Shown piece after piece: positions 1,101 to 23,468 of a DNA stretch of 64,000 nucleotides. The notes below the pieces were generated by a model that was not told the origin of the DNA, did no database searches, and worked only from the letters and a program-made list of their open reading frames with translations. The position numbers were made by a program, and so were the translations under genes. How positions within the stretch are numbered: position 1 is the first letter of the stretch; each line of letters starts with the position of its first letter. This stretch comes from Ignavibacteriota bacterium (GTDB taxonomy: Bacteria; Bacteroidota; Ignavibacteria; SZUA-365): NCBI GenBank assembly GCA_016218045.1, contig JACRFB010000031.1:72908-136907 (forward strand), given 5' to 3'.

Positions 1101-1988
1101 GACGTGGTGGTGAATCCGTTGCCCGCCGAGCCTCTCATTACACAGGATCGCGACACCCTCTTTTCGACACCCGAGGTCGGGTATCAGTGGCTGCTCAACG
1201 GTGTGCCGCTGCCGGGCGAGACAGGACGTTTCCTGCTCATCCCGCGTTCCGGAACCTACACGGTTCGTGTGACCAACCAGTTCGGCTGTTCGGCGCTCTC
1301 GGCGCCGCGGCCGGTGCGGATCGCGCTGGCGACGGTGACCGTGCCCGTCTTGCGGGCCGCTCCGGGCGAGCGTGTGTCCGTGCCCGTGACGCTGACGTTT
1401 TCGGAGGATCTTCTCACCGCGGGAGCAGGATCGTTCACAGCCCGCCTCAGGTTCAACAACGAAATTCTCGAGCCCGTCGCGGGCAGCGCGGTGTTTTCGC
1501 AGCAGGGAACGGATCGCATCGTCGACATTTCCGGACCGCTTCGTGACACGATAGGTGTGCTCGCAACCTTCGAATGTACGGCCATGCTCGGCCGTGTCGA
1601 CAGGGTCCCCATCACGCTCGAGCGCTTCAATTGGGACGCCGGTGCGGTGCGCACGACCATGGTTTCAGGCGAGTTCCAGATCATCGCCTGTCTCGAGGGT
1701 GGTGTGCGTCTTTTCGACGGCAGTGTGCCTGCGACTCTGGCGCAGAACCGGCCTAATCCTTTTAACGCGACAACCACGATCGACTATGCCGTCGTGGAGG
1801 CGGGACCCGTGCGCCTCGAGGTGATCGACATGCTCGGCCGATGTGTCGCGATACTTGAGGACGGACACAAACAACCGGGCGCCTACCGCGTTGTCTTCGA
1901 CGCGGGTGCGTTGCCGTCCGGACTGTATCACGCCGTGCTGCAGACGCCGTCCATGACGCTGCTGCGCGCCATGTCCCTCGTCAAGTAA
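6..1988 (+). CDS. T9SS-secreted cell-surface repeat protein, 5'-truncated by window edge (~80-aa two-Cys Ig-like repeats + T9SS C-terminal sorting domain)
   Basis: ORF runs from the window edge. It has at least five ~80-aa tandem repeats with the motif FCxGDSVxLDAGxG..YxWSxG..GxYxVxVxDxNGC..NPxP. The C-terminal ~80 aa (NPFNATTTIDY..LEVIDMLGR..GLYH) matches the T9SS type-A sorting domain pattern. A paralogous architecture follows in the next gene. Confidence 0.8.
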   Translation: MTITVFVRPRPSITASGPTIFCVGDSVRLDAGGGYVRYTWSTGDTTQTVTLKASAGVTVTVTDNNGCTGTSSQVDVVVNPRPTAAITASGPTSFCEGGSVDLDAGAGFVSYAWSSGETVQRITVTRSGSYSVRVRNVSGCDDSTSVFVRVFPLPAPVITALGPTTFCDGDSVVLDAGAGFRSYLWSGGDRTRSIVVKRGGTYAVTVTDSNTCTATSAGVTVVVNPLPTPAVTVTGDTVFCEGGSVQLDAGAGYVLYKWSSGESSRSITVTRSGSYSVLVGLATGCSAVSRVVTVTVFPNPRPVITANGPLVFCDGDSVTLSGPPGFVRYAWSGGESTRSIVVKRSGSYALTVTDTNGCIGSATTVDVVVNPLPAEPLITQDRDTLFSTPEVGYQWLLNGVPLPGETGRFLLIPRSGTYTVRVTNQFGCSALSAPRPVRIALATVTVPVLRAAPGERVSVPVTLTFSEDLLTAGAGSFTARLRFNNEILEPVAGSAVFSQQGTDRIVDISGPLRDTIGVLATFECTAMLGRVDRVPITLERFNWDAGAVRTTMVSGEFQIIACLEGGVRLFDGSVPATLAQNRPNPFNATTTIDYAVVEAGPVRLEVIDMLGRCVAILEDGHKQPGAYRVVFDAGALPSGLYHAVLQTPSMTLLRAMSLVK

Positions 1989-8328: not shown

Positions 8329-8404
8329 CGTCCTTGCAGTCGCGCGGACGCTAGCTCCCGGCTCTCCAATTTTTGTATATTACGCGATCCAACCCGAGGA
8401 CCCG

Positions 8405-10420
8405 ATGAAACGCCTGTCGGCATTCTTCCTGACGCTTCTTCTCTGTGCGGCACAATCCGCAATCTCACAACCGGCCGCTGATCCCGATTCGATGCGCGCC
8501 GGTTTTGGTGTGTACGGCAATTATAATCTGAACTTTCACACGGCCGAGTTCAGCAAACTTCCGGGCATCCCGAACTGCTGTCCGCGTTTCGAGAGCGGGG
8601 ATGGGACGGGTTTCACGGCGGGTGTGCTGTACGTGTATCCGCTCGAACGCACCATGTCCATCGACATCCGCGCGGGTTACACAGGATACAGCGCGCTGCT
8701 GTCGTCGCGCGAAGCGACAACAGTCAGCATTGTCGGTACCGCCGCGCCGGGCGAATTTGAACACACGATCGACGCGACTCTGTCGTCCGTTGGAATCGAG
8801 CCGCTCTTTGATTACCGCTTCTGGAAATCGCTGTCGTTTATGGCGGGTCCGCGTCTCGGACTCGTGCTGTCAAGATCCTTCGAGCAGAAGGAACAGATCG
8901 TGGTTCCGGCCGACCGCGGCGTGTTCATGGATACGCAGACGCGCACACGGAATGTGCTCAGCGGCGACATACCCGACGCGGGATCGATACAACTTGCCCT
9001 TCTCGCGGGACTCCGCTATGAAGTGCCTCTCAACCGCGATCGCACGCTCGTGGCCGCTCCCGAAATCATCTTTGCCTACGGTGTGACGCCGGTCGTCAGC
9101 GGCTTCTCGTGGAACGCGCACACATTGCGCCTGGGCGCCTCGGTGCGCTGGCTTCCGAAGGAGAGTGCGCCACCGCCCCCGCCGCCCCCGCCACCACCAC
9201 CTCCTCCTCCCCCGCCGCCGCCGCCGCCCCCCGCGCTGGCCGCATCCATCACCGCCGCCGGTGTGGACAAGGACGGTACCGAGCAGCCGCTGGTCCGTGT
9301 GCGCGTTGAAGAGTTTATCTCCACCGAGATGCGGCCTCTGCTGCACTACGTGTTTTTTGATGAACAGTCCGACGCCATCCCTGCGCGCTACGCGCGCCTC
9401 TCGAAGGAGCAGGCAGAGGCCTTCGACATGCCCGCCCTCCGTTCGACAGGCACCATCGAAATGTATCACAATGTGCTTAACATCATCGGGCGCCGTATGC
9501 GCGCGAATAATTTCGCCACACTGACGCTCACGGGTTGCAACAGCGACGAAGGAGCGGAGAAGGGCAACACCACCCTGTCGCGCAACCGGGCAATTGCGGT
9601 GCGCAATTACCTGCGCGACGTATGGGGCGTGCCCGAATCGCGTCTGCGTGTCGTGGAACGCGGTCTGCCGGAAACTCCCTCGCGTGTCACCGAGCCCGAC
9701 GGCATCGCCGAAAACCGCCGCGTCGAAATCTCCGCGAGTGACCCCGCAATTCTCGACCCTGTCATCACCGGCGACACGCTGCGCACCGTCACGCCGCCGG
9801 TCATGCGCTTCTACCCGCGCGTCGAAGCGGGAGCGGGTGTCGTGGACTGGCGCCTTACCGCCCGGCAGAGCGGCCGCGTGCTGAAGGAGTGGACCGGCCG
9901 CGAGATGCCGCCCGCGTCGCTTGTCTGGAATGTGGCCGAGGAACGCACCAGCATCCCGCGCACCAACGAGCCGATCGTGTACGCGCTGCGCGTCCAGGAC
10001 GCGGCGAATCAGACTGTGGTCACTCCCGATTCGCTTATCCCCGTGGAGCAGATCACCATCCAGAAAAAACGCGCCGAACGGCTGGCCGATCTCGAGATCG
10101 ACCGCTATAACCTGATCCTCTTCGATTTCGATTCGCCCGCGCTCAACGCGCGCAACGTGCGCATCGCGGAATTCATCAAACCGCGCATCGCGAAGAATTC
10201 GAACGTCAAGGTGACCGGGCATACCGACCGACTGGGCGAGACTGAGTACAACCTGCGCCTGTCCGAGGGCCGCGCGCGCTCCACCGCCTCGGCGCTCAAT
10301 GCGAGCAACGCCGTGGTGCAGGGCGCCGGCGAGTCATCCATGTACGACAACGAAACGCCCGAAGGACGATTCTACTGCCGCACGGTGAGTGTTGTTGTCG
10401 AGACGCCGGTCTCCAAATAA
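8405..10420 (+). CDS. OmpA-family outer-membrane protein: N-terminal beta-barrel-like domain, 22-residue poly-proline linker, two OmpA-like peptidoglycan-binding domains
   Basis: The ORF-track start (8174) overlaps the upstream gene. An in-frame ATG at 8405 gives a classic signal peptide (MKRLSAFFLTLLLCAAQSAISQ). The C-terminal region has OmpA-like motifs (NLILFDFDSPAL..VTGHTDRLGETEYNLRLSEGRA; TLTGCNSDEGAEKGNTTLSRNRAIAVRNYL). A P22 run separates the domains. Confidence 0.8.
   Translation: MKRLSAFFLTLLLCAAQSAISQPAADPDSMRAGFGVYGNYNLNFHTAEFSKLPGIPNCCPRFESGDGTGFTAGVLYVYPLERTMSIDIRAGYTGYSALLSSREATTVSIVGTAAPGEFEHTIDATLSSVGIEPLFDYRFWKSLSFMAGPRLGLVLSRSFEQKEQIVVPADRGVFMDTQTRTRNVLSGDIPDAGSIQLALLAGLRYEVPLNRDRTLVAAPEIIFAYGVTPVVSGFSWNAHTLRLGASVRWLPKESAPPPPPPPPPPPPPPPPPPPPPALAASITAAGVDKDGTEQPLVRVRVEEFISTEMRPLLHYVFFDEQSDAIPARYARLSKEQAEAFDMPALRSTGTIEMYHNVLNIIGRRMRANNFATLTLTGCNSDEGAEKGNTTLSRNRAIAVRNYLRDVWGVPESRLRVVERGLPETPSRVTEPDGIAENRRVEISASDPAILDPVITGDTLRTVTPPVMRFYPRVEAGAGVVDWRLTARQSGRVLKEWTGREMPPASLVWNVAEERTSIPRTNEPIVYALRVQDAANQTVVTPDSLIPVEQITIQKKRAERLADLEIDRYNLILFDFDSPALNARNVRIAEFIKPRIAKNSNVKVTGHTDRLGETEYNLRLSEGRARSTASALNASNAVVQGAGESSMYDNETPEGRFYCRTVSVVVETPVSK
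9169..9234 (+). repeat. CCN-codon low-complexity tract encoding 22 consecutive prolines
   Basis: caccgcccccgccgcccccgccaccaccacctcctcctcccccgccgccgccgccgcccccc, directly visible in the sequence. It also generates spurious overlapping ORFs on both strands. Confidence 0.9.
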
Positions 10421-10429
10421 TTCCGCCGT

Positions 10430-10972
10430 ATGAAGCGCCTCGCCGCCTTCATCCTTCTTGCCTGTGTCTGTGCCTGCGCCGCGCCTCTCGCGGCGCAGGT
10501 GCGTTCACCCTTCCCCTGGCTGCCCACCAACTTCGACACCACGGTGAACGGCAATTATCGCGGCGCTAAAATCACATCACGCGCGCAACTCGATTCACTC
10601 AAGCGAATGTACGGGGTGCGGACGGTGATCAACCTCGCCAAGGATGCACTGCCGAAAAGCGGGGGCACCGAAATCGAATGGACGCGCGAACTCGGCATCG
10701 AGTACGTGCCCGTCTATCTCGGCACCAATCCGCCATCACCGAAGGACTGGGAACGTATACGCGCGCTCCTGCAGGGAGGGGGCGTGTACGTGCATTGCGC
10801 GCACGGGGCCGACCGCACCGGCGCAATCATCGCAAAGTATCGCACCGACGTCGAGGGCCTCACGCCCGCGGACGCGTATCGTGAGGCGCGCCGCTTCGGC
10901 TTCAAGCCCTGGCTCGGGGCGCTCCGCGCCTGGTTCGGATATCCGTCGGAACAGGAATCGCGCGGACGCTAG
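10430..10972 (+). CDS. Secreted CX5R protein-tyrosine/dual-specificity phosphatase-like protein
   Basis: Signal peptide MKRLAAFILLACVCACAAPLAAQ. P-loop HCAHGADRTG (C-X5-R), characteristic of Cys-based phosphatases. Lies 9 nt downstream of the OmpA gene. Confidence 0.7.
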   Translation: MKRLAAFILLACVCACAAPLAAQVRSPFPWLPTNFDTTVNGNYRGAKITSRAQLDSLKRMYGVRTVINLAKDALPKSGGTEIEWTRELGIEYVPVYLGTNPPSPKDWERIRALLQGGGVYVHCAHGADRTGAIIAKYRTDVEGLTPADAYREARRFGFKPWLGALRAWFGYPSEQESRGR

Positions 10973-11607
10973 ATGTACTTTTCGGCCAGCTCGAGGCCGA
11001 GCCCGCGGCGGACGATCGACGGGACGTCGTCGGTGAGATCGATCATCGTCGAGATCTCGCCCGTGTAGGGCGAACGGTACACGCCCTCGTCGTCGATGAT
11101 GATGTCGACGAAACTGTCGAACTGCTCGAAGAGGTCCTCGATGTCGGGCGCGTCTTCGACGTCGGGCAGACGTGCCGACATCGAGATCAAGGGATTGTCG
11201 AGCTGCTTGATCAGCACCTGGCAGATGATGTGATCGGGCACGCGGATGCCGGAGGTCTTCCTGCGCGGATTCTGCACGAGTTTGGGAACAAGTTTTGATG
11301 CGGGCAGAAGGAAGGTGTACGGACCCGGCACGAGATGCCGCAGCACCTGATACGATGTGTCGGAAATGTGCGCGTACTCGGCGATGTCGGAGAGGGAGGA
11401 GGTCACGAATGTCAGCGGCTTGTCGTCCGACAGCCGCCGGATCTTCCGGATGCGCTCGTGGCCTTCCTTGTTCTTGATGTCGCAACCTATCGCGTACACG
11501 GTGTCGGTGGGATACAGCATCACCGCGCCGCGGCGCAGACGGTCGACGATTTCCGTCATCAGCCGTTGCTGGGGATTGTCGGGGTGCAGTACGTATCGGT
11601 CGGCCAT
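10969..11607 (-). CDS. tsaC: L-threonylcarbamoyladenylate synthase, YrdC/TsaC type (t6A biosynthesis)
   Basis: YrdC/Sua5-domain motifs (AVMLYPTDTVYAIGCD...KPLTFVTSSLSD). Start re-called at MADRYVL (ORF codon 80) so that it does not overlap the upstream gene. The result is 213 aa, a YrdC-only protein. Confidence 0.75.
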   Translation of the reverse strand: MADRYVLHPDNPQQRLMTEIVDRLRRGAVMLYPTDTVYAIGCDIKNKEGHERIRKIRRLSDDKPLTFVTSSLSDIAEYAHISDTSYQVLRHLVPGPYTFLLPASKLVPKLVQNPRRKTSGIRVPDHIICQVLIKQLDNPLISMSARLPDVEDAPDIEDLFEQFDSFVDIIIDDEGVYRSPYTGEISTMIDLTDDVPSIVRRGLGLELAEKYI

Positions 11608-11611
11608 GGTC

Positions 11612-12409
11612 TCACGCGTGTACTGTGCGATTGTCGTATCCGCCGTCAGCCGCGGTGCCGTGTGTGGCGGCGTACACACGTTCCATCTCGAGGAGCTGCT
11701 CCACGGTGTTGACGCCGCGAATCTCGTCGAACGATTCGACGATGCACGGCTCCATCCTCCGTCCCTCGCGTGCGAACATCGCAAAGACGTCGGGCAGGTA
11801 ATACTCGCCCTGCGCGTTGTGGTTGTCGACCCGCGCCAGGGCATCGAAGAGGTCCGCCTTGCGGAAGACGTAGATGCCGCTGTTGATTTCGTTCACCGCG
11901 CGTTCCTCGTCGCTTGCGTCCTTGTGTTCGACGATGCGCAGTATCCGCCCGTCGTCGCCGCGGATCACGCGGCCGTATCCTGTCGGATCCGGCAGCACGG
12001 CTGTGAGGACGGTCACCGAGGCGCCGCTCTCACGATGGCGCGCAAGCATGCGTGCCGTGGTCTCGGGCCGCGTCATGGGCGCGTCGCCGCTCAGGATCAG
12101 TACGTCGCCCTCGAACTGCGCGAGCGCGGGACCCGCCTGCATCACCGCGTGCGCCGTGCCGAGCTGCTGCTCCTGCACGGCGATCGAGACGTCGGGATGC
12201 GCCGCGCGGAGAAACTCCTCCACGCTCTCGCGCTGATGACCCACGATGACGATGATGTTTTCCGCCGCGTTTTTCCGCGCGAGTCCGATGACGTGGTCGA
12301 CAAGCGGCCGTCCGCCGAGGGGATGCATGACCTTCGCGAGCGAGGGATTGTTCATGCGTTTGCCTTGGCCGGCGGCCATGATGACGGCAGCGAGAGGAGA
12401 AGAGGACAT
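11612..12409 (-). CDS. Sugar-nucleotide nucleotidyltransferase (GlmU N-terminal uridylyltransferase-like domain only; no LbH acetyltransferase domain)
   Basis: AVIMAAGQGKRMNNPSLAKVMHPLGGRPLVDHVI...LILSGDAPM matches the GlmU/RmlA NTP-transferase fold. At 265 aa it ends before any hexapeptide-repeat domain. Confidence 0.7.
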   Translation of the reverse strand: MSSSPLAAVIMAAGQGKRMNNPSLAKVMHPLGGRPLVDHVIGLARKNAAENIIVIVGHQRESVEEFLRAAHPDVSIAVQEQQLGTAHAVMQAGPALAQFEGDVLILSGDAPMTRPETTARMLARHRESGASVTVLTAVLPDPTGYGRVIRGDDGRILRIVEHKDASDEERAVNEINSGIYVFRKADLFDALARVDNHNAQGEYYLPDVFAMFAREGRRMEPCIVESFDEIRGVNTVEQLLEMERVYAATHGTAADGGYDNRTVHA

Positions 12410-12456
12410 GATACTCCGAAAATCGGTCGGGAAGGGTGCCTGGGGCTGTGTCTCTG

Positions 12457-12855
12457 TCAGCAGTTGAGGAAATCGGCGTGCATCGGGCGGTCGGGCGCCG
12501 TCAGCACATCCTTCATCTTGTTGTCGGAATCGACCAGCACGATGGTGGGATGATGGCCGCGCGCCTCTGCTTCCTCGAACTCGGCGTAGGTGATGATGAT
12601 GATCTCGTCGCCCACGTGCCCGAGCCGCGCCGCGGCGCCGTTCAGACAGATCGTCCCGCTGCCCGGATCACCCGTGATCGCGTAGGTCTCGAAGCGGTTC
12701 CCGTTGTTGACGTTCACCACCGACACCTGTTCGAAGGGCAGGATGTTGGCAAGGCGCATCAGCTCGATGTCGATGGTCAGGCTGCCCTCGTAGTACAGCT
12801 CGGCTTCGGTGACGCGTGCCCTGTGGATTTTCGATTTGCACATGCGGAGTCTCAT
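12457..12855 (-). CDS. panD: Aspartate 1-decarboxylase
   Basis: [20 protein letters not shown]...[19 protein letters not shown] is the PanD signature, including the KSKIHRA motif and the Gly-Ser processing site. Overlaps panC by 4 nt. Confidence 0.9.
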
Positions 12856-13712
12856 GGCCGCGGTATTTCCTGTAATAACGTATTGTCGATGAGTCGTGTG
12901 GATCCGACCTTCGCGGCGATTGCCACGAGCAGGGGACGCATACAGTCCGCCTCGGGGTCGGTGAATGTTTCAGCGTCCATTACCGCCACGTAGTCGACAT
13001 CCACTCCCGGGGTCGACGCGAGTTCCGACCGCACCGCGCCCGCGAGTGCCGATGCGCGCCGTTCACCGCCCGCGTACAGGGCCGACGCGGATTCGAGCGC
13101 GCGCGACAGCGCCAGCGCGCGCTGTCGCTCCTCGGGCGAGAGGTACACGTTGCGCGAACTCATCGCCAGACCGTCGGCCTCGCGGACGGTGGGCTCTACA
13201 ATGAGGGCGGTATCGAAGTTCAGTTCCTGGAGCATGGCGCGTATGACGGCTACCTGCTGTGCATCCTTCTGACCGAAGACGGCCACGTGCGGCCGCACGA
13301 TATTCAGCAGTTTTGCGACGACGGTCGCGACGCCGTCGAAGTGGCCCGGACGCGACGCGCCCTCGAGCACCGACGCGAGTCCGGCGATGCTGACCCGGGT
13401 CGAAAATCCCGGCGGATACATCTCGTCCGTCTCCGGTACAAACAACAAATCACATCCCGCCTGTTCCGCAAGCGCCGAATCACGCGCGAGATCGCGCGGA
13501 TAGCGCGAAAAATCCTCCTTCGGACCGAACTGCGAGGGATTCACGAATATGGACACGGCGGTGAAATCCGCCTCGGCGCGTGCGCGGCGGATGAGCTGCA
13601 GATGCCCTTCGTGCAGGTAGCCCATCGTCGGGACAAAAGCGATCCGCCTTCCGTCGCGGCGCAGCGCGTCCGTCGTGCGCTGCATGTCGCGTATGGCGGT
13701 GATGGTTTTCAT
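12852..13712 (-). CDS. panC: Pantoate--beta-alanine ligase
   Basis: [20 protein letters not shown] and the rest of the PanC signature along the ORF. Confidence 0.9.
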
Positions 13713-13735
13713 GGGAAGGAGCGATGCGGAAATTT

Positions 13736-14575
13736 CTAGACCATGTGGCGGAGCAGCCGCGCGATCGTTTTCCGCATATCCTTGCGCGGTACCACCAGGT
13801 CGAGGAAACCTTTCTCGAGAAGGAACTCGGCTCGCTGAAAACCCTCGGGCAGATCGCGGCCGATGGTCTGTCGAATGACGCGCGGACCGGCGAATCCGAT
13901 CAGGGCCTTCGGTTCGGCGATGTTGATGTCGCCCAGCATTGCAAAACTCGCCGTCACGCCGCCCGTGGTCGGGTCGAGCATGATCGAGATGTACGGGAGC
14001 TGCGCCGCGTGGAGCTGCGACAGTTTTGCGCTCGATTTCGCCATCTGCATCAGTGAGAAGGCGCCCTCCATCATGCGCGCACCGCCGCTCATTGAAATCA
14101 GTATGAGCGGGCAGCGCAGGCGCAGTGCGCGGTCGATGGCACGCGCGATTTTTTCGCCCACGACGGAACCCATGCTCCCGCCGATGAAACCAAAATCCAT
14201 CGCCGCGACCGAGACGGTGATGCCCTCGATCTTGCCGGTTCCGGCCCGCATTGCGTCATATAGGTCGGTCTTGTCGATCGTCGCCTTGATGCGGTCGGTG
14301 TACCGCTTGGTGTCGGTGAACTTGAGCGGATCGGTGGCCCGCATCTTGCGGTCCTGTTCCGTGAACGAACCCTTGTCGAGGAGGATCGAGAGGTACTCCG
14401 TGCTGCCGACGCGGAACGACGCCTCGCAATGGATGCAGGTGTACATCGCCGTCTGCAACTGTTTGACGTGCATCATCTCGCCGCAGCTCTCGCATTTCAG
14501 CCACGAGCCGTCAGGTGCCTCCCGCTTCGCGGGGGCCGGAGTGATGCTGCTTTTATCTCGTTTAAACCAGGCCAT
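13736..14575 (-). CDS. accD: Acetyl-CoA carboxylase carboxyltransferase subunit beta
   Basis: MAWFKRDK N-terminus. CxxC...CxxC zinc ribbon ([15 protein letters not shown]). Carboxyltransferase motifs ([15 protein letters not shown]). Start re-called at MAWFKR (ORF codon 59) instead of the upstream ORF start. Confidence 0.88.
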
Positions 14576-14782
14576 GGTCTCGTTCTCCTCTTTCTCTGTC
14601 TCTCCGTGCCGGAATTGATCGATGATGCCGGCGTTCCGGTGGAACACGATTCCTGACAGCTTTCCGCCGGCATGCTGCGGGCGGGTGTGATGCCGGACGG
14701 GAAGTGCGGGCAATGAGGCGAACGGCGATTGCCGTTCCTCTGAAACCAACTATAATACGAATCTTTCGGGAAAAATCGCGGT

Positions 14783-15472
14783 TTACCTGCCAGCGATTTT
14801 CGGGGTTGTCGTCCGGAACTCGCGGAGGTACTGTGGCTCGCATTCGTCGATGGAGTCGTGCCGCCCCTCAGCATGCAGACGTTCGCCGAGCAGCGCCACC
14901 GCTCCGGCGTGTGCGCCCGCATCCGTGCCGGGCAGTGCGCGGTACCTGCCGTCGGACAAGGCGGCCTGCGCGGCTGCCGCGTCTCCCGCCAGCCAGGTGC
15001 CGTCGGGGAGTCCCGGAAGGATCGTGTCGAGTGTGCCCGCGAGAGGCCCGGCCGCCCGATGCATGGTTCCCCCGTGTATCTCGTAGCGCGCTGCGTACAC
15101 GTCGCCTCCGCGCGCGTCGAAAGCTGTTACCAGAGTGGCATCGGCCGCCGGTATGCCCGATTCGGCGATGTGCAGGGCAAGCGCATCGAAGGTCGGTACG
15201 GCCACCAGGGGAATATTGCGGCTCATGGCGATCCCTTTCGCTGCCGCCATGCCGATGCGCAGTCCGGTGAAGGAACCGGGTCCGGCCGACACCGCGACCG
15301 CGGCAATCCCGCTCCAATCCGCCTGTGCGTTCTGGAACAGTTGCGCCGTGACGGGCAGCAGCAGCTCGTCGTGCAGATTCCCTCTGAGTAGTAGGATACT
15401 CGCGAGCAGACGCCCGTTTTCTACAAGTGCCACGCTCAGCGTGCGTGTCGCGGTCTCGATCCCGAGTATCAC
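14783..15472 (-). CDS. tsaB: tRNA threonylcarbamoyladenosine biosynthesis protein TsaB (YeaZ)
   Basis: MILGIETATRTLSVAL...SAGPGSFTGLRIG is the TsaB/YeaZ signature. Overlaps tsaE by 4 nt. Confidence 0.85.
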   Translation of the reverse strand: MILGIETATRTLSVALVENGRLLASILLLRGNLHDELLLPVTAQLFQNAQADWSGIAAVAVSAGPGSFTGLRIGMAAAKGIAMSRNIPLVAVPTFDALALHIAESGIPAADATLVTAFDARGGDVYAARYEIHGGTMHRAAGPLAGTLDTILPGLPDGTWLAGDAAAAQAALSDGRYRALPGTDAGAHAGAVALLGERLHAEGRHDSIDECEPQYLREFRTTTPKIAGR

Positions 15473-15942
15473 TGCATCGACTCCATGTCACCCGTCTCCT
15501 CGAGGATCGACGATCCCTGGTCGGCGACAAGTACAACCGTGTAGCGTCGCTCGGCCTCGTTGCCTCCGTGCTCGCAGAGTATTTCCCAGCGCGGGAAGGG
15601 AAGCAGGGCCAGCATTTTCTCCGCCCACTCGACAAGCACCACCGCGTCGCTGTCGAACATTTCATCGAGGCCCGCCTCGAACATCTCGTCGATGCTCCGC
15701 AGCCGGTACACGTCGCAGTGCAGCACGTGCCGCACACCGCGGTATTCGTTGACGATGGTGAAGGTCGGACTGCTCACCTGTTCTTCACACGCGTACGCCG
15801 CGCACATTCCGCGCACCCAGGCGGTCTTGCCGCTGCCCAGATCGCCGGATAGCGCGACGGTCGCGCCCGGCTCCAGCGCGCGCGCAAACGCGCCCGCAAG
15901 CGTGCGCGTCTCCTCTTCGCTGTGCGTGAGATGCGCCTGCAT
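15469..15942 (-). CDS. tsaE: tRNA threonylcarbamoyladenosine biosynthesis ATPase TsaE (YjeE)
   Basis: Walker A GDLGSGKT. 157 aa with YjeE-like layout. Lies 4 nt downstream of the PorX-like gene. Confidence 0.85.
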   Translation of the reverse strand: MQAHLTHSEEETRTLAGAFARALEPGATVALSGDLGSGKTAWVRGMCAAYACEEQVSSPTFTIVNEYRGVRHVLHCDVYRLRSIDEMFEAGLDEMFDSDAVVLVEWAEKMLALLPFPRWEILCEHGGNEAERRYTVVLVADQGSSILEETGDMESMQ

Positions 15943-15946
15943 TGCC

Positions 15947-17506
15947 TCAGCGCGGCTGCATGGTGATGACCGGCAGCACCAGCTCTTCCATCGAAATGCC
16001 GCCGTGCTGGAAGCTGTCGCGGTAGTACGCCAGATACTTGTTGTAGTCGGTCGGATACACGAAGTAATAGTCTTCCTTTGCGATCACGTAGTTCACGGTC
16101 ATCCCGCGATTGGGAAGACGGTACTCGGCGGGTTTCGGAATGAGCATCGCCTGCTTCGGATCGGCCTTGACGTTGCGGCCGAATTTGTAGCGGAGATTGG
16201 TCGATGTCTCACGGTCGCCCAGGGCCTTGGTGCCGCGCATGCAGCGCACGCTCCCGTGATCGGTGGTCACGATCACGGTGGCGTCGGGGAACTTCGCAAT
16301 CTGCCGGAACATCGCGAACAGCGACGAATGGGTGAACCACGAGCGTGTCAGCGAACGGTAGGCCGCCTCGTCGGGCGCGATTTCCTTGAGTATGGGCGTG
16401 TCGGACCGGCTGTGCGCCAGCATGTCGACGAAGTTGACGACGATGGCGGTCACGTGATTCTTCGCGAACGAGGCGATGTTCCCCACCATCTGTTTGCCGT
16501 ACTCGGGATCGATGATCTTGTAGTACTTCAGCTCGGTGCGGAGCCGTATGCGGCGCCGCTCCAGCAGTTTCTCGAGCAATTCCTTCTCGTTCTTGTTCAT
16601 CGAATAGTCGTCGTCGTCGCCGCGCGACCACAGCCCGGGCAACACGCGGTCGATGTCGCTCGGATACAGCCCGCTGAAAATCGCGTTCCGCGCGTACGGC
16701 GTGGCCGACGGCAGTATGCCGAGATAGAAGTCCTTTTTGATGGAATAGAGGTCGTGCAGGTGTTGCTCCATGATGAGCCACTGATCGTATCGCATGCAGT
16801 CGATTACGAAGAAAAACACCGGGCCCTTGTTCTCGATATGCGGCACCAGGAAACGGTCTACCACGTTGGGCGACAGCACCACCGATTCGTCCTCGATCCA
16901 GTCGCGGTAGTTTTTTTCCACCACCTTGCAGAACTCCTGATTGCACTCGCGCCGCTGGTCGGCGACGGTCTGCTGCAGCCCGAGTTCGGGGTGCTCGTCG
17001 AGTTCGCTCTCGCGTTCGACGATGCGCCGGTACATCGACGTCCATTCCTCGAGATCCATCGGTCCGAGCAGTGAACGCGACACCTCGTTGAATTCCTGGA
17101 TGTAATCCTGCGCGGTGCGCGAACCGAGGATTTTACGCCCCTCGAGGATCTTCTTCACCACAAGCAGGATCTGGCTCGGATTCACCGGCTTGGTCAGGTA
17201 ATCGCTGATCTTTTCGCCGATGGCCTCCTCCATCAGCGCTTCCTCCTCGTTTTTTGTGACCATCACGACGGGCAGTGTCGGCCGCACATCCTTGATGCGC
17301 GCGAGCGCGGCTAAGCCGCCCATGCCGGGCATCGATTCATCGAGGAGCACGAGGTCCACCGGCGTGTTTTCGACCCAGCTTATCGCGTCGGCCCCGTTCG
17401 TGACGGTGTGGACTTCGAAACCCTTCTGCTCCAAAAATAGAATGTGGGGCTTGAGGAGTTCCACCTCGTCGTCGACCCAGAGAATGCTGCCCTTGTTTTC
17501 GCTCAT
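15947..17506 (-). CDS. porX: PorX-like response regulator (CheY-type receiver + PglZ/alkaline-phosphatase-superfamily domain), putative T9SS regulator
   Basis: Receiver domain ILWVDDEVELL...LVLLDESMPGMGG...VVMVTK, followed by a ~390-aa PglZ-type domain (..VIVTTDHGS..). At 519 aa from the re-called start MSENKGSILWVDDE (ORF codon 27), it matches the size and architecture of P. gingivalis PorX. Confidence 0.75.
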   Translation of the reverse strand: MSENKGSILWVDDEVELLKPHILFLEQKGFEVHTVTNGADAISWVENTPVDLVLLDESMPGMGGLAALARIKDVRPTLPVVMVTKNEEEALMEEAIGEKISDYLTKPVNPSQILLVVKKILEGRKILGSRTAQDYIQEFNEVSRSLLGPMDLEEWTSMYRRIVERESELDEHPELGLQQTVADQRRECNQEFCKVVEKNYRDWIEDESVVLSPNVVDRFLVPHIENKGPVFFFVIDCMRYDQWLIMEQHLHDLYSIKKDFYLGILPSATPYARNAIFSGLYPSDIDRVLPGLWSRGDDDDYSMNKNEKELLEKLLERRRIRLRTELKYYKIIDPEYGKQMVGNIASFAKNHVTAIVVNFVDMLAHSRSDTPILKEIAPDEAAYRSLTRSWFTHSSLFAMFRQIAKFPDATVIVTTDHGSVRCMRGTKALGDRETSTNLRYKFGRNVKADPKQAMLIPKPAEYRLPNRGMTVNYVIAKEDYYFVYPTDYNKYLAYYRDSFQHGGISMEELVLPVITMQPR

Positions 17507-17638
17507 CAGGTGAATGTCCCTCGTCTGTGACGGAATGCGCGCGGCGCGCGTGAAAAAAAAACTTACAAAACCACGCCGGGGCAAACAAGGCAGAGTCTGA
17601 CGCCCGCCGTCATCGCTCTGCGGGCAATCACGCGCGGA

Positions 17639-18745
17639 CTAGAAATGATACGCGGCACCGCCCCCGAATATCACGTGTTTGCTGAGTCCCGCGCTGAGAA
17701 ACACATCCACCGGCCCGAACAGGGCCGCCACTCCAAGCGTCCCCTTCACGGTCAGATCGTCGAGACTGATGCTGGCCCTTTGGGGATCGATGTCGTAGCC
17801 GATCTGGTCCTTGATCGTCTGCGGCAGTGTGAATGTGTACGTGCCGGAAGACGAGAGGTACTCGATGGATATGCCGGCAAACGGCTCTATCCAATCGAAG
17901 CGGCGGCTGGCGTGGATGTTGGCCGAAAGCATGTCGGTGGCCGCGTCGAGTTTCGCGCGCGTCGTACCCACTGTGTTTTCGATGGTGGAATGTTCGTAAC
18001 TCACAAGCACCGCGAGATCGACAGGGAACGACTCGAGTCCGCCTAGACGCGGATTCGTGAGCGTGTTGCTGATGCTGTGACGCAGTGCCACACCGAAGAA
18101 CGAGAACTTGCCGATGTTTTTATCAAAGGTCACCGGGGGAATATAGCGGAGCAGCATGTCGGTGGAGGCAAACGTCCCGATGCGAAGCTGCGGAATGGCC
18201 GCGAAAACGGTGGATTGATTCGTGCCGTTGGTGAGCTGCAGCGAATCGGGCAGAAGCTTCAACTGATCGGGCGGAACGAACCACAGATATTCCTTCGGAA
18301 TGCGGAACCACGACCCCGTGCCTCCGAACACGGTCGCTGTGGTCAGTGTCGGCGACATTTTCCCGTCGCGCACGGCGGGTTCGAGCACGAGCGATTTGAA
18401 GGCCTTCAGCGTGTCGCTGTCGGTCGGTCTGACGGCGTAGGGAATGTGCCCCGTGTAGTTCCGCTGATCGTCGCGCACCCAGGTGTAGACGGTCTGTACC
18501 GAGAATTCGAAAGACAGACGGTCGGTTTTCTCGACATGGGCCGAGTGGTAGAAACCATGATTCGCTCCCACGTTCGACACGATGACGAGCGGTCCCATGA
18601 ACCCGCTTGCGTTCTCCCCGAAAAGCTGTAGCGAAAATTCCTCGAGCAGACGTTTGGTAAAACCCTGATCGAACTGCGCGCGCAGCGGAGCGGGGAGCAG
18701 AAGCACAAGAAGCAGCGCGCAGAGCGCCGGGATACGTCGTACCAT
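17639..18745 (-). CDS. Predicted outer-membrane beta-barrel protein (unclassified), paralog of 18766-19725
   Basis: Signal peptide MVRRIPALCALLLVLLLPAPLRAQ. C-terminus ends ..AAYHF (aromatic terminal residue typical of OMPs). Shares blocks (GFYHSAHV / TATVFGG / IPPVTFD) with the next gene. No family recognised. Confidence 0.5.
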   Translation of the reverse strand: MVRRIPALCALLLVLLLPAPLRAQFDQGFTKRLLEEFSLQLFGENASGFMGPLVIVSNVGANHGFYHSAHVEKTDRLSFEFSVQTVYTWVRDDQRNYTGHIPYAVRPTDSDTLKAFKSLVLEPAVRDGKMSPTLTTATVFGGTGSWFRIPKEYLWFVPPDQLKLLPDSLQLTNGTNQSTVFAAIPQLRIGTFASTDMLLRYIPPVTFDKNIGKFSFFGVALRHSISNTLTNPRLGGLESFPVDLAVLVSYEHSTIENTVGTTRAKLDAATDMLSANIHASRRFDWIEPFAGISIEYLSSSGTYTFTLPQTIKDQIGYDIDPQRASISLDDLTVKGTLGVAALFGPVDVFLSAGLSKHVIFGGGAAYHF

Positions 18746-18765
18746 GATCGTGGCTTTCGTGGTTG

Positions 18766-19725
18766 TCAGAGATGCAATCCCGCGCCGAGTGTGAAGTTGT
18801 CCTGCACACCGAAACTGTATTCGGCGTTGACATCCACAAGTGGCAGGAAGGTGAGGGTGACGCCGATCGTGAAGCGGAAATTGACGCGTGCAAAATCGAG
18901 TTCGATGCTCTGCGGCGTGCGCAGTTCCGCGGGCAGATCGGGCGAGGTGGGCGTATAGGTGTACGCCACGCGGATGTCGTAACTCTCGTAACCGAAACCT
19001 CCGTACAGTTCCGCGATCGCGATGGGCAGACTCGCATGCACGTTCGCGTTCAGGTTCGAGACGTGCATGATGCGGCCGATCTCGAGCCGCTGCGCCGCGG
19101 CCATCACCGCGATGTCGAAGGGCAGGCGCAGGTAATTCGTCGGACTGTGTTTCACGCCGATGCCGACAAAGCTGATCTTTCCGATCTCGGGATCGAAGGT
19201 GATGGGCGGAATGCCGCGCACCATGATCTCCGTCGCCGCGACCGATCCGATCGTGGCGTGCGGCAGCATCACAAAGGTGCTGCGCAGCCCGTTGCCACGC
19301 GGCAGGGCGATGTCGGGATACGGGTTGCCGGACGGATCAACCTGTCCTGAATGAAGCACGGCGCCTTCACCCCCGAAAACCGTGGCCGTCGTCACACGCG
19401 CGGGATACCCCAGCGCGACGAGCGACGAGGGGAGCAGCGCGACAAAGGAGGCATCACTCTCGGGCACGTACGTCCAGACGCCGCGAAGACCGAACCAGAT
19501 GTTCAGTCCCGAATCCACGCGCGCGGAATGGTACAGCCCGCTGTTGAAGCTGTAGCCGATCGCGTCCGCGCCAGGACGCAGATAGTCGCGCGCCAGCGCC
19601 TCGACGCCGAGTGTGCGTATGAGGTCGCCCATCGACTGGGCGCGCGCGGCGGGCGCGAGGAGGAACATCAGCACTGCGGCGCCAAGGCGGAGCAGCAGCG
19701 CCCGCGATCCGCGCGTGGGATTCAT
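18766..19725 (-). CDS. Predicted secreted/outer-membrane protein, paralog of 17639-18745
   Basis: Signal peptide ..LMFLLAPAARAQ. Conserved blocks GLYHSARVD, TTATVFGGEG, IPPITFDPEIGKISF are shared with the downstream paralog. Overlaps the adk stop by 4 nt. Confidence 0.5.
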   Translation of the reverse strand: MNPTRGSRALLLRLGAAVLMFLLAPAARAQSMGDLIRTLGVEALARDYLRPGADAIGYSFNSGLYHSARVDSGLNIWFGLRGVWTYVPESDASFVALLPSSLVALGYPARVTTATVFGGEGAVLHSGQVDPSGNPYPDIALPRGNGLRSTFVMLPHATIGSVAATEIMVRGIPPITFDPEIGKISFVGIGVKHSPTNYLRLPFDIAVMAAAQRLEIGRIMHVSNLNANVHASLPIAIAELYGGFGYESYDIRVAYTYTPTSPDLPAELRTPQSIELDFARVNFRFTIGVTLTFLPLVDVNAEYSFGVQDNFTLGAGLHL

Positions 19726-20279
19726 GCGGTGTGTCCGAGTGCCTCGAAAATGCGTTCGGTGATTTCGGTGATGTCGCCGACACCGTCGACGTCACGCAGT
19801 ATGCCGAGTGTCTTGTAGTAGCCGATGAGCGGCTTCGTGGTCTCGTGATACACGTCGAGTCGGCGTGAGATCGTGTCGAAGGTGTCGTCGGAACGTCCAC
19901 GCTTCATGAGGCGGTCGATCAGCTTGTAATCGGGAACAAGCAGGTTGACGACCACGTCGAGAACGGCGCCGCGCTCTTTGAGCATCGTTGCAAGTTCGTC
20001 GGCCTGTGCCGTAGTCCGCGGGTAGCCGTCGAGCAGGAAACCCCGTGCCGCGTCCTCGTCGCCCAGTCGGTCGCGCACCATCGCGTTTGTCACGGCGTCG
20101 GGAACAAGCTCGCCCGCGTCCGAGTACCGCTTGGCCTCGATCCCGAGCGGCGTCTGCTTCGTGATGTTCGCCCTGAAAAGATCGCCGGTCGAAATATGCG
20201 GGATGGAGAAATGCGCCGCGACGTACGCGGCTTGCGTGCCTTTTCCGGCGCCCGGCGGGCCGAAGAGAATCAGGCGCAT
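19722..20279 (-). CDS. adk: Adenylate kinase
   Basis: MRLILFGPPGAGKGTQA P-loop and the AMP-binding TGDLFRA motif. Start re-called at MRLILF (ORF codon 16), giving 185 aa. Confidence 0.9.
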   Translation of the reverse strand: MRLILFGPPGAGKGTQAAYVAAHFSIPHISTGDLFRANITKQTPLGIEAKRYSDAGELVPDAVTNAMVRDRLGDEDAARGFLLDGYPRTTAQADELATMLKERGAVLDVVVNLLVPDYKLIDRLMKRGRSDDTFDTISRRLDVYHETTKPLIGYYKTLGILRDVDGVGDITEITERIFEALGHTA

Positions 20280-20412
20280 GCGAACCTCAGATTTGGTGGA
20301 TGCGGTGGTTGCGTGCTCCGTCACGAAGGAGTAGTGAAAAGTACGGATTTTTCTCCGGCCTATACAACTGGCCGGAACCCGTTCCGCATCCGATAATCCG
20401 AGCCCCCGCGCT

Positions 20413-20853
20413 TCAGCGGTGCAGGTACTTCACAAGACGGATGCTGTTCGAACGGCCCTGGCGGACGTCGTACTCCACTTCGTCCATCAATCGTTTCATC
20501 AGCACAATGCCCAGGCCTCCCTTGCGCGGCTTCAGGAAATACTCCCGCATGTCGGGCATCGTGTAATGTGTCGCATCAAAGCCGACACCGTTGTCGTGGA
20601 TCACGACTGTGAAGCGCAGGTCGTCGGACGTGCTGACGGTGAGGCGGATGCGCCCGTCGGGATTGTCGCGGTACGCGTGTTTGATGATGTTGGTGCAGGC
20701 CTCGTCAACCGCCAGCTCGATGTTCGATACGTCGTCGTCGCCGAAACCGAATGTGCGGGCGGCTTCGGAGACGAAACTCCTGGCCTGTTCCAGCAGCTCT
20801 GTTCTGCTGCTGATCTCCAGCGTGCGTTCGATGTGTGGAGTCGACGTTGTCAC
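20413..20853 (-). CDS. Anti-sigma regulatory factor, serine-protein kinase (RsbW/SpoIIAB-like HATPase_c)
   Basis: 146 aa with the ELAVDEACTNIIKHAY...IHDNGVGFD...GGLGIVLMKRLMDEV motifs of the GHKL anti-sigma kinases. Confidence 0.8.
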   Translation of the reverse strand: MTTSTPHIERTLEISSRTELLEQARSFVSEAARTFGFGDDDVSNIELAVDEACTNIIKHAYRDNPDGRIRLTVSTSDDLRFTVVIHDNGVGFDATHYTMPDMREYFLKPRKGGLGIVLMKRLMDEVEYDVRQGRSNSIRLVKYLHR

Positions 20854-20871
20854 GGTCTGCTACCCGGTGAG

Positions 20872-21261
20872 TTACTCGCCCGTTCCGTGTTTCTGGTACG
20901 GGCTGTCCGCCGGATTGTTCCGGAATCGATCGATCGCCTCGGTTTCTTCGCTGTAAATCTCGTACAACATGGGGAAGCCGAGCAGGTCGAAGACGTTGTA
21001 CACACGCGGGGACATGCTCGTGAGCTTGATGTCGCCGCTGTTTTTGCGCACGTCCTCGATGAACTGCATCAGCACGCCCAGTCCCGCGCTGCTGATGTAG
21101 GCGAGATCGCGGAAATTGACGACCAGGTTGAACCGGCTGCTGTCGATGCTTTTTTGAAATGCATGTTCCAGATCAGGAGCGGTGTGCGCGTCCAGATATC
21201 CTTTGAGATCCAGGACCGTCACTCCTTCGATCTGTCGGATTCCGACCTTGAAATCGCTCAT
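20872..21261 (-). CDS. STAS-domain anti-sigma-factor antagonist (SpoIIAA/RsbV-like)
   Basis: 129 aa. The ..VLDLKGYLDAHTAPDL...NLVVNFRDLAYISSAGLGVLM motif carries the conserved phospho-Ser context (SSAGLG). Confidence 0.8.
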   Translation of the reverse strand: MSDFKVGIRQIEGVTVLDLKGYLDAHTAPDLEHAFQKSIDSSRFNLVVNFRDLAYISSAGLGVLMQFIEDVRKNSGDIKLTSMSPRVYNVFDLLGFPMLYEIYSEETEAIDRFRNNPADSPYQKHGTGE

Positions 21262-23468
21262 ACGGCTGAACCTCCTGATGCGGAATAATATCGTTCGTCA
21301 GTCATAGTCTCGTGTCGTGTCGTGGTGCCGTTCCAGCGGAGCACCAGCAGGGTCAGATCGTCGAGTGCTTCGCCGTTGCCGGTGAATCTGCGAACGGCGT
21401 CGATGATTGCCTCTCCAATGCTGCGCGCGCTTTCGCCCGCGTGTTTTTCCGCTATGTCGGCAAGACGTTCAAAATGGAACTCCTCGCCGTTTTTGTCCCG
21501 TGCTTCCGTCACACCGTCGGTGAAAAGCACGATCACGTCGCCGGGAGCCAGGACCAGCCCTTCCTCTTCGATGGAATCCGCGAACCTTTCGGTGGGGTCG
21601 AGTCCGAGTCCCATGCCGTTCGGTCGCAAATACCTGGAAGAGCCGCCGGAAATATACAGAAGAGGACAATGTCCCGCACGGGAAAATCGCACGGAGCCGC
21701 TCTGTATGTCGAGTACGGCGTAGAGCAGGCTGATGAACGATTTCCGGTCCATCGTCCTGCACAAGGTGTCGTTCATGCGACGGAGCAGCGCCCGCGTCGA
21801 GGTCATGTCGCCGCTCATCGACTGGAATATGCCCTTGACCTGGGCCATGTACAGCGCGGCCGATACGCCCTTGCCCGACACGTCGCCGATGGTGATGCCG
21901 AGCTGCCGTTCGTCGAGCGCGACCATGTCGTAGTAATCGCCGCCTACTTCGAAGGCCGGGATCGACTCGGCGTACACGTCGTATGTCTCGGCGATGGGAA
22001 GCAGGGAGGGAAGGAGGCTGCGCTGCATCTGCCGCGCAAGCAGCAGTTCCTGCTTGAACCGTTCGCGTGATAACGATTCCGCTATGAGCCGGCTGTTCTC
22101 GAGGGCCACCGACACGAGGTCGGCAAAGGCCGACGCGCCCTGAAGCAGATCCTTGTCGAATTCGTACGCGGTCTTTTTATGGATCGCAAGCAGTCCGACA
22201 ATGCCGCCGTACGCGTGCAGCGGCAGCAGCGCGAGTGTGCCGGCCGGCACCGCCGCGCCCGTGTGGTCGATGCGCCGGTCGCGTTGAAGGTCGTGAATCG
22301 TGACACCTTTCCCCGTTTCGAGGACGAGTGCGTGCAGCGGACGCCCGTCGCTCAAGCGCAGGGCGTTGCGCTGTTCCTCGCTCATGTTGCGGAGCGAGAC
22401 GGTGGTGGGCAGCGGCGTGCGCTCGAGCGCGGCTTCGCGGTCGGCGGGCCGCTCGGGCGTGTCGCGGTACACCTCGGCGGGGAACAGTTCGATCCACGCC
22501 GAACCGCCCTCCGTGATATCGAGCGCCAATTGTGTCGATGTCGAAAGCAGATCGTCGAGGTCGAACACTTCGGTCACAAGGCGGCTCATGTTCTGGAACG
22601 ACGAGATCTCAGCCTTCTTCCGGTCGAATTCCTTCGCCGTGGGAAGGTGCATGAGGGTGCTGGCGAACCCGAGTCCCATGTATATCGCGCCGAACAGCAT
22701 CGTGGTCGAGAAAAATGCGTCCATCACGGGATGGAAGTACGCCAGTGCCGATTTGTACACGTCGCTGTCGGCGGCGCTGAGATCGAACACGGAGGCGTCG
22801 ACCGCCAGGATGATGAAGAACACAAAGCCGAAAAACGAGAGTCCGAGATTGGCGAGTTTTTCGCGCCGGGTCAGCACCAGGATCCACGAGAACCGGAACG
22901 AATTCACCACCATCATCAACACGAGACCGAAGGACACAAAGATGTACGTGGCGCCGCCCTCTTCCTGCCGGATGGAGAGGATCGAAAAGACCAGCGCGTA
23001 GGCCGCAAAAAATCCGAGCATCACCAGGTAGTTGCGCCGGGTGTTGCGCCGGCGTTTGATGAAGATCAGCTCGGTGAACGTGAACAGGAGCAGGATCGAC
23101 GCGATGCCCGACGCGATGCCCATGATGAGGGTGACGATCACACTCGTAATGCCGTCGGGCACGAGCCGTCCGTCCATGTTTTCGAACGAGATCATGGAGC
23201 CGATGCGGAACAGTCCGAGGGTCACGAGCAGCACTGTCGCCGTGATGACGGTACTGCCGATCATCTGCACAGGATTTGGTTCGCCGTCCCGCTGACGGCG
23301 CGTCCAGGCCACCGCAAAGGTCCCAGCCCCGGCAAGCAGGAGCAGTCCGTGGAAGAGGTCGCCTCCGGCGGACGATCGCACCAGGGCCTGCCGCGCGATC
23401 ATGTAGACAAAATCGGCCGCGAAGGTCACACCCGAGAGCAGGAACAGTAGTCGGCGATTCAGTGTCAT
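21258..23468 (-). CDS. Membrane sensor PP2C-family serine phosphatase (7TM-type N-terminal sensor, GAF domain, SpoIIE/RsbU phosphatase domain)
   Basis: N-terminal ~260 aa is strongly hydrophobic with multiple TM segments. The middle region is GAF-like. The C-terminal PP2C motifs are GGDYYDMV..GDVSGKGVSAALYMAQ...FTDGVTEA. Overlaps the STAS gene by 4 nt. Confidence 0.8.
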   Translation of the reverse strand: MTLNRRLLFLLSGVTFAADFVYMIARQALVRSSAGGDLFHGLLLLAGAGTFAVAWTRRQRDGEPNPVQMIGSTVITATVLLVTLGLFRIGSMISFENMDGRLVPDGITSVIVTLIMGIASGIASILLLFTFTELIFIKRRRNTRRNYLVMLGFFAAYALVFSILSIRQEEGGATYIFVSFGLVLMMVVNSFRFSWILVLTRREKLANLGLSFFGFVFFIILAVDASVFDLSAADSDVYKSALAYFHPVMDAFFSTTMLFGAIYMGLGFASTLMHLPTAKEFDRKKAEISSFQNMSRLVTEVFDLDDLLSTSTQLALDITEGGSAWIELFPAEVYRDTPERPADREAALERTPLPTTVSLRNMSEEQRNALRLSDGRPLHALVLETGKGVTIHDLQRDRRIDHTGAAVPAGTLALLPLHAYGGIVGLLAIHKKTAYEFDKDLLQGASAFADLVSVALENSRLIAESLSRERFKQELLLARQMQRSLLPSLLPIAETYDVYAESIPAFEVGGDYYDMVALDERQLGITIGDVSGKGVSAALYMAQVKGIFQSMSGDMTSTRALLRRMNDTLCRTMDRKSFISLLYAVLDIQSGSVRFSRAGHCPLLYISGGSSRYLRPNGMGLGLDPTERFADSIEEEGLVLAPGDVIVLFTDGVTEARDKNGEEFHFERLADIAEKHAGESARSIGEAIIDAVRRFTGNGEALDDLTLLVLRWNGTTTRHETMTDERYYSASGGSAV

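Follow-up and report, generated by a model that had tools for sequence, protein, structure and literature searches.

Gene order at the porX locus

The stretch of DNA analysed here (the window, 64,000 nucleotides of contig JACRFB010000031.1 from an Ignavibacteriota bacterium, with a G+C content of ~62%) carries a gene for a 519-aa receiver-PglZ protein resembling PorX, a type IX secretion system (T9SS) regulator. It lies between two paralogous genes for predicted outer-membrane proteins (OMP2 and OMP1) and tsaE and tsaB, two genes of the tRNA modification t6A. An earlier note on this DNA, made from its letters alone, had proposed that the outer-membrane proteins and porX might form a compact regulatory and structural T9SS module.

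A six-frame listing of open reading frames (ORFs) confirmed the minus-strand order adk, OMP2, OMP1, porX, tsaE, tsaB at the coordinates claimed. The adenylate kinase gene adk (19722-20324; Pfam ADK, E = 5e-52; NCBIfam NF001381, 240 bits) is followed by OMP2 (18766-19725), the short paralog of 319 aa, and OMP1 (17639-18745), the long paralog of 368 aa, both of which belong to the DUF6588 family (PF20230; E = 2.9e-41 and 1.1e-34, respectively). Next come porX (15947-17506, ATG at 17506; NF052313, Response_reg and PglZ domains), tsaE (15469-15942; UbK/YjeE family ATPase-kinase, TIGR00150 with 102 bits versus 60.1, Pfam TsaE with E = 3.9e-36) and tsaB (14783-15472; TIGR03725 with 150 bits against a cutoff of 69.3). 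The spacers measure 20 nt between OMP2 and OMP1, 132 nt between OMP1 and porX and 4 nt between porX and tsaE, while tsaE and tsaB overlap by 4 nt. Gene set, common strand and spacings are thus as the earlier note had given them, including the placement of tsaE-tsaB directly downstream of porX; what it did not mention is a further 4-nt overlap, between the stop of adk and the start of OMP2. Identical proteins occur in consecutive order in an NCBI metagenome-assembled genome (MAG) of an Ignavibacteriota bacterium (MBI5646982-84).

The receiver-PglZ protein is a PorX ortholog by sequence

The identification of the 519-aa protein as PorX held up well. It scores 698.8 bits on the equivalog model NF052313 (T9SS_RR_PorX), whose cutoff is 300, over model positions 2-513 of 513, and is colinear over residues 7-519 with the solved PorX of Porphyromonas gingivalis (PDB 7PV7; 526 bits, E = 8e-157). 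The Flavobacterium johnsoniae PorX structure is likewise colinear (E = 6e-136), and the receiver domain is recognized as PF00072 (E = 4.9e-26). The window protein shares the architecture of receiver, three-helix bundle and PglZ/APS domain with both relatives (P. gingivalis PGN_1019, PDB 7PV7/7PVA; F. johnsoniae Fjoh_2906, PDB 8TED/8P6F), although its host is an uncultured, high-GC (~62%) relative of the Ignavibacteriota.

For comparison, a genome scan with a PorX alignment, using one genome per GTDB species, yielded 595 relatives, of which the best 80 loci were analysed. These derive from Ignavibacteriota, Kapaibacterium, unclassified Bacteroidota MAGs, Chlorobiota-like bacteria, KSB1, Calditrichota, Rhodothermales and Kryptonia, and include no Bacteroidia or Flavobacteriia. 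All 80 orthologs have the phospho-acceptor D56, which corresponds to D58 of P. gingivalis PorX and aligns with its FLD motif, and the threonine nucleophile T269. A 13-sequence PorX alignment shows D236, T269, D361, H365, D416, H417 and H501 to be invariant. The metal ligands of P. gingivalis PorX are D239, T272, D361, H365, D415, H416 and H500 (PMC9757075), and all seven have intact equivalents in the window protein. The latter thus shares the phospho-acceptor aspartate, the threonine nucleophile and every listed zinc ligand with P. gingivalis PorX, and differs from it by Thr77 in place of Y79 and by a serine in place of T270 of the LPT core. By these sequence features, the window protein is a bona fide PorX ortholog with an intact active site. 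Three loci (L007, L008 and L076) carry PorX orthologs of 55-80% identity in MAGs whose records bear the title 'uncultured Chromatiales bacterium' or 'Hyphomicrobiales bacterium' and are probably mislabelled.

PorX is expected in organisms that possess a T9SS (PMC10951265). Two ORFs of the window (6-1988 and 2005-8328) end in type A sorting domains (TIGR04183, cutoff 23; 24.6 and 32.6 bits), which bears out the earlier statement that two T9SS cargo genes lie about 8-15 kb away and places the system in the host organism. No component of the core T9SS machinery was found among the window ORFs scanned, Pfam matches in its other parts added no T9SS component, and the PorX partners PorY, SigP and PorL are not encoded in the window. 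By analogy with its characterized relatives, the window PorX would be phosphorylated at Asp56 by a PorY-type kinase encoded elsewhere and would act on the T9SS via protein contacts with PorL/GldL and SigP. In its PglZ domain, Thr269 would be the nucleophile of a phosphodiesterase site with two zincs, and cleavage of oligonucleotides may be expected from homology to the P. gingivalis and F. johnsoniae proteins.

Two further places in the window touch on the T9SS and on PorX. Directly past the 2107-aa cargo gene, an ORF at 8174-10420 (+) has two stretches in its C-terminal half that match OmpA-like peptidoglycan-binding domains, and its likeness to PorE is weak and sub-threshold (25 bits, the cutoff being 600); it opens 155 nt inside the cargo ORF, and its true start is probably later. 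A second receiver-domain sequence at 53493-53834 (+) shares 30% identity with the receiver of PorX along 114 aa. This sequence falls within a minus-strand ORF (52779-54860) that has no Pfam match, and the gene calls at this position need checking.

OMP1 and OMP2 are predicted beta-barrels of the DUF6588 family

The two proteins encoded upstream of porX had been described as paralogous signal-peptide proteins with shared sequence blocks, possibly beta-barrels, that could not be assigned to any named family. Their relatedness was readily confirmed (28% identity, E = 5e-25), as were the common blocks GFYHSAHV/GLYHSARV, TATVFGG and IPPVTFD/IPPITFD in the translations and signal-peptide-like N-termini ending in ..RAQ in both. 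A family, however, can be named: both match PF20230 end to end, with 120.5 bits for OMP1 and 142.1 bits for OMP2 against a gathering score of 27 (E = 1e-34 and 3e-41).

AlphaFold2 models of OMP2 (pLDDT 88.6) and OMP1 (pLDDT 82.1) show helices at residues 32-59 followed by ~10-12 strands, and a helix at residues 24-61 followed by a barrel of ~10-12 long strands, respectively. In both, a putative signal peptide comes first, and a conserved N-terminal helix of 25-35 residues precedes the barrel. The C-terminal residue is phenylalanine in OMP1 (...AAYHF) and leucine in OMP2. On these models, both proteins are predicted to be outer-membrane beta-barrels.

The comparison with PorV, PorQ and PorP/SprF that the earlier note had suggested returned nothing for either protein: neither these nor other T9SS models in Pfam and NCBIfam matched at E ≤ 0.1. 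Correspondingly, no T9SS protein was present among the listed top-50 Foldseek PDB matches of either model. Those matches consisted of generic barrels alone, namely omptins, autotransporter beta-domains, FapF, Legionella porins and OmpX, with TM-scores of at most 0.4 for OMP2 and 0.47 overall. The highest scores among them belonged to 10-12-stranded monomeric barrels of similar size, the omptins OmpT/Pla, the autotransporter beta-domains of EspP/NalP and FapF, and in autotransporters and FapF, too, the barrel is preceded by an N-terminal helix. At TM-scores of 0.3-0.47 and identities of 6-13%, this is a likeness of fold class only; neither a passenger domain nor an omptin catalytic motif was seen, though no search aimed at them was made. 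A search of PDB sequences with the DUF6588 profile gave nothing meaningful (best E = 0.48, an aspartokinase), and no paper mentioning DUF6588 was found in a literature search. At E ≤ 1e-3 the family amounts to ~1,941 representative clusters; its few members with a source name come from Bacteroidota, Ignavibacteriales, Fulvivirgaceae and candidate divisions.

The conserved neighbour of DUF6588 is adk

Loci of relatives that were compared with the window are denoted by L-numbers. In every close relative holding upstream sequence, the short and the long DUF6588 paralog follow adk, usually in the order rlmN-adk (in the window, rlmN lies 11.5 kb away). adk is directly upstream of the pair in L001, L003, L005, L009, L051, L087, L090, L091, L093, L096 and L097, while L094 starts inside the pair. 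The window clade is thus characterized by a conserved tandem of a short (~315 aa) and a long (~370 aa) gene right after adk. A DUF6588 genome scan with a narrower alignment gave 8 loci. Distant members of the family, with 25-30% identity, are single genes and in this respect unlike the tandem pair; in the Ignavibacteriales-type contigs L089, L098 and L100 they form part of an rlmN-adk-GDPD-DUF6588-TPR/CHAT array, which in L101, cut at its 5' end, reads adk-GDPD-DUF6588-TPR/CHAT. Two other distant DUF6588 genes stand in unrelated contexts.

The situation at porX is different. Of 60 porX loci with at least 3.5 kb of upstream sequence, only 2 have DUF6588 within ~10 kb upstream. A porX string near the pair was found in seven distinct genomes (L001/L092, L009, L051, L087, L090/L095, L094 and the window), and in all of these except the window an opposite-strand gene of the CNNM family stands between OMP1 and porX, accompanied in L087 by an aldehyde dehydrogenase gene. 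No CNNM gene was detected in the whole window. Unrelated genes, and not porX, come after the pair in L003, L005 and L091; in GCA_964388275, the pair (L003) and porX (L008) lie on different contigs.

Since adk stands upstream of the pair in close relatives and adk-GDPD upstream of the distant members, and since DUF6588 accompanies porX in so few loci, the conserved partner of DUF6588 is adk and not porX. The array of OMP genes and porX is not an ancestral operon, because the CNNM gene intervenes on the opposite strand in close relatives; and as relatives carry this gene where the window lacks it, the direct adjacency of OMP1 and porX in the window is a local rearrangement. The synteny check of porX neighbourhoods, itself proposed in the earlier note, therefore went against a conserved link. 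That note had further named two outcomes that would speak against its module, namely that the paralogs hit an unrelated, well-characterised family and that their linkage to porX is not conserved in relatives. The linkage is indeed not conserved beyond one clade, but the family turned out to be an uncharacterised DUF rather than a well-characterised one.

Some further features of these neighbourhoods were seen. Directly upstream of adk, the window encodes a partner-switching module (20413-23468, minus strand) of a GAF-SpoIIE phosphatase (736 aa), a STAS anti-anti-sigma factor and an RsbW-like kinase. L003/L004 also have this module ahead of adk, while other relatives have rlmN there. In L089, L098, L100 and L101, an ECF sigma factor, thymidylate kinase and a CtpB-like protease are encoded past the large TPR/CHAT gene. 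The GDPD linkage raised the idea that DUF6588 might be an uptake channel for glycerophosphodiesters, which found no support: the GDPD proteins comprise ~255-262 aa, the size of cytoplasmic UgpQ-type enzymes.

tsaE directly follows porX across several FCB phyla

Synteny downstream of porX was scored by tblastn with the window proteins, counting only loci with enough sequence. In 70 of 74 loci the gene directly downstream of porX, in the same orientation, is tsaE; tsaB comes next in 61 of 70 and accD follows tsaB in 54 of 63. The gap between porX and tsaE has a median of ~11 nt and does not exceed 60 nt in 65 of 73 loci. With such frequency and such short gaps, porX-tsaE adjacency is the norm across the sampled part of the Fibrobacterota-Chlorobiota-Bacteroidota (FCB) superphylum. 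It is also published for P. gingivalis, where ubK1, a "ubiquitous bacterial kinase" gene of the TsaE/YjeE family, lies downstream of porX in 81 strains (Saran et al., J Biol Chem 2026, PMC13241743). The linkage of a secretion regulator to tRNA-modification genes, which the earlier note had called unusual, is thus commonplace. While the published survey covers 81 strains of one species, ours extends over several FCB phyla.

The window gene corresponds to the P. gingivalis pair in family, position and strand. UbK-family proteins carry Walker A, SPT/S, HxDxYR and EW motifs (PMC13241743), and all four can be read in the window TsaE translation (GSGKT, SSPTF, HCDVYR and VEWAE). In vitro, UbK1 phosphorylates P. 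gingivalis PorX at Y79, yet gingipain secretion is unaffected in a Y79A mutant (PMC13241743). The corresponding residue is Thr77 in the window and alanine in F. johnsoniae, and among the 80 orthologs this column holds N in 29, S in 21, A in 10, G in 7, E in 6, D in 2 and M, Q, L, Y and T in one each. The window PorX, accordingly, has no conserved equivalent of the Y79 kinase target, and, judging from these alignments, porX-tsaE synteny is far older than the Y79 phosphosite. Because Y79 is not conserved, any conserved coupling of PorX to TsaE would have to use another site or an interaction other than phosphorylation by the kinase. The tight pairing, ancient within the FCB group, would most likely reflect co-expression of PorX with the TsaE/UbK ATPase-kinase.

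The window differs from the published porX-ubK1 report in that tsaE overlaps tsaB and that tsaC is found further along. With this overlap and with tsaC in the same string, the gene content fits an additional, canonical t6A role for the window tsaE. About 207 nt past tsaB, accD (13736-~14575, start at MAWFKRDK; TIGR00515, 380 bits versus 317) opens a minus-strand series that continues with panC (12852-13712) and panD (12457-12855), both placed by synteny (tblastn for panC) with Pantoate_ligase and Asp_decarbox called at the same places in L001 and L087. A 265-aa nucleotidyltransferase like the N-terminal half of GlmU (11612-12409; Pfam NTP_transferase) and a tsaC gene of the Sua5/YrdC family (10969-~11600, start approximate; TIGR00057, 197.5 bits versus 123; Sua5_yciO_yrdC at the same place in L001 and L087) complete it.

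The genes tsaE, tsaB and tsaC, three of the four that bacteria have for t6A, hence lie on one strand within 5 kb of each other (10969-15942), interleaved with accD, panC, panD and the nucleotidyltransferase gene. L001 and L087 show the same order with the Sua5/YrdC gene last.

A candidate promoter precedes porX

Upstream regions of porX from the window and six relatives (L001, L007, L009, L051, L090 and L094) were aligned. A block of the form CTTG-N17-TnGTAnnTT lies in the gap between OMP1 and porX, ~50 nt upstream of the porX ATG (17558-17589, minus strand), and reads TTG ... TAAGTTTT in the window; its CTTG and GTA..TT are invariant in all seven sequences. We take the block to resemble the Bacteroidota promoter type with TTG at -33 and TAnnTTTG at -7. 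In L001, L009, L051, L090 and L094 a gene on the opposite strand precedes porX, which must therefore have a promoter of its own in these five relatives; L007 has too little upstream sequence. The conserved block is a likely candidate for this promoter.

A scan of 14.5-21 kb for sigma-70 promoters and terminators found no enrichment over shuffled sequence, although it does not model promoters of the Bacteroidota type. The 132-nt gap contains a weak terminator-like, GC-rich hairpin followed by TTGTTTG.

Other genes of the window

The remainder of the window holds housekeeping genes (clpB, rlmN, a ctpB-like protease gene, RNase G, dnaN, gyrB, pdxA and an Omp85 protein), and scans of the window for tRNAs and Rfam families gave no matches. 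Other envelope-related proteins are a DUF6029 protein of 539 aa (42840-44459, plus strand), a GWxTD-domain protein (54755-56206, plus strand) and an Omp85-superfamily protein (60022-61656, minus strand). The nucleotidyltransferase at 11612-12409 scores 275 bits against GlmU models, below their cutoffs and over positions 2-235 only, and a hexapeptide-repeat (LbH) protein has a gene of its own 26 kb away, at 38600-39181 (+). GlmU may be split into two genes in the window lineage.

Discussion

So far, our findings suggest that two independently conserved housekeeping strings have come to lie side by side in the window, and that they do not constitute a T9SS module; we assign this reading a probability of roughly 75%. 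The first string would consist of adk and the short and long DUF6588 genes, with the OMP genes probably co-transcribed with adk. The 4-nt overlap of adk and OMP2 suggests that the two are translationally coupled. The second string would run from porX through tsaE and tsaB, possibly on to accD, panC, panD, the nucleotidyltransferase gene and tsaC, and would be transcribed from a separate promoter within the 132 nt before porX. The minus strand would accordingly hold two transcription units, adk-OMP2-OMP1 and porX-tsaE-tsaB(-...), which would have come into direct contact when the opposite-strand CNNM gene was lost or moved elsewhere. The DUF6588 pair would be constitutive outer-membrane beta-barrels, plausibly hetero-oligomeric, with a general envelope or channel role.

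Several points weigh against this reading. The OMP pair and porX lie within 1.2-3 kb of each other in seven genomes of the window clade, so that a loose functional association is possible. Terminator-like sites are no commoner in the scanned region than in shuffled sequence, and read-through from OMP1 into porX is possible in the window genome. The role proposed for DUF6588 is wholly inferred, in a family that no retrieved paper mentions. As to the second string, the deep synteny of porX and tsaE could reflect the inertia of slowly rearranging genomes instead of selection, and in P. gingivalis the Y79A mutant shows no secretion phenotype (PMC13241743).

The proximity in seven genomes also speaks for the module of the earlier note, in which DUF6588 proteins would serve as T9SS channels or anchors. 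The co-orientation and short spacers in the window, the cargo genes 8-15 kb away and the occurrence of DUF6588 so far only in FCB-group organisms, on the few members with a source name, agree with it as well. Against it stand the missing matches to PorV, PorP/SprF and PorQ, the listed top-50 Foldseek matches, which include no T9SS protein, and the neighbourhoods themselves: DUF6588 upstream of only 2 in 60 porX loci, a CNNM gene breaking the array in all relatives that keep the proximity, pairs occurring without porX and distant members following adk-GDPD and not T9SS genes. DUF6588 is also a small family of ~1,941 representative clusters, compared with at least 8,000 matches for PorX. Synteny thus largely refutes the module, which we consider very improbable. 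The two strings might instead have been fused by the loss of CNNM into a new operon, with porX-tsaE-tsaB also read through from the adk/OMP promoter and the dosage of PorX coupled to the expression of the envelope proteins. The mere 132 nt between OMP1 and porX, which lack a strong intrinsic terminator, and the absence of CNNM from the whole window would allow this, but the ancestral promoter-like motif is intact in the gap and the hairpin with TTGTTTG is present. We regard such a fusion as unlikely, and even if it did take place, it would be recent and accidental, with no conserved meaning.

Within the second string, porX-tsaE-tsaB adjacency could be a frozen ancestral order without functional meaning, tsaE being a plain t6A ATPase. 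Its overlap with tsaB and the presence of tsaC in the same string fit this, the remaining genes (accD, panC and panD) are housekeeping genes and likewise conserved, the Y79 column varies, and the Y79A mutant of P. gingivalis shows no T9SS phenotype. However, the pair was kept over phylum-level divergence, at 50-60% PorX identity and with gaps of ~11 nt, while the genes further downstream were lost more often (70/74 for tsaE, 61/70 for tsaB and 54/63 for accD), and UbK1 does phosphorylate PorX in vitro. A merely frozen order therefore appears somewhat unlikely to us. A bolder proposal is that porX-tsaE represents an ancient two-gene signalling cassette of the FCB group and, separately, that the adk-linked short and long DUF6588 proteins form a hetero-oligomeric outer-membrane channel; this we hold to be speculative and doubtful as it stands.

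The main value of the two-string reading lies in a correction: the apparent secretion module would be an accident of gene order, and DUF6588 should therefore receive no T9SS annotation on the strength of gene order. The PorX family itself and its pairing with ubK1 within P. gingivalis were already known (PMC13241743). Mildly new are the wide range over which porX-tsaE is conserved, the finding that Y79 is not, and the deep linkage of adk and DUF6588, and these points may interest specialists on the T9SS and on t6A. DUF6588 is an uncharacterised family of predicted barrels with a deep, unexplained linkage to adk; if its paired members formed a channel, this would be peculiar to Ignavibacteriota-like bacteria. 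The porX-tsaE(-tsaB) pairing, reported only within P. gingivalis, is found here at operon-like spacing over several FCB phyla, and this breadth strengthens the case for a real functional link between PorX and TsaE/UbK. Should the pair indeed be a signalling cassette, TsaE/UbK would modulate PorX, or PorX would modulate TsaE, via a site or interface other than Y79. The P. gingivalis Y79 site would then be lineage-specific, and T9SS control would be tied to t6A and translation status or to cellular ATP.

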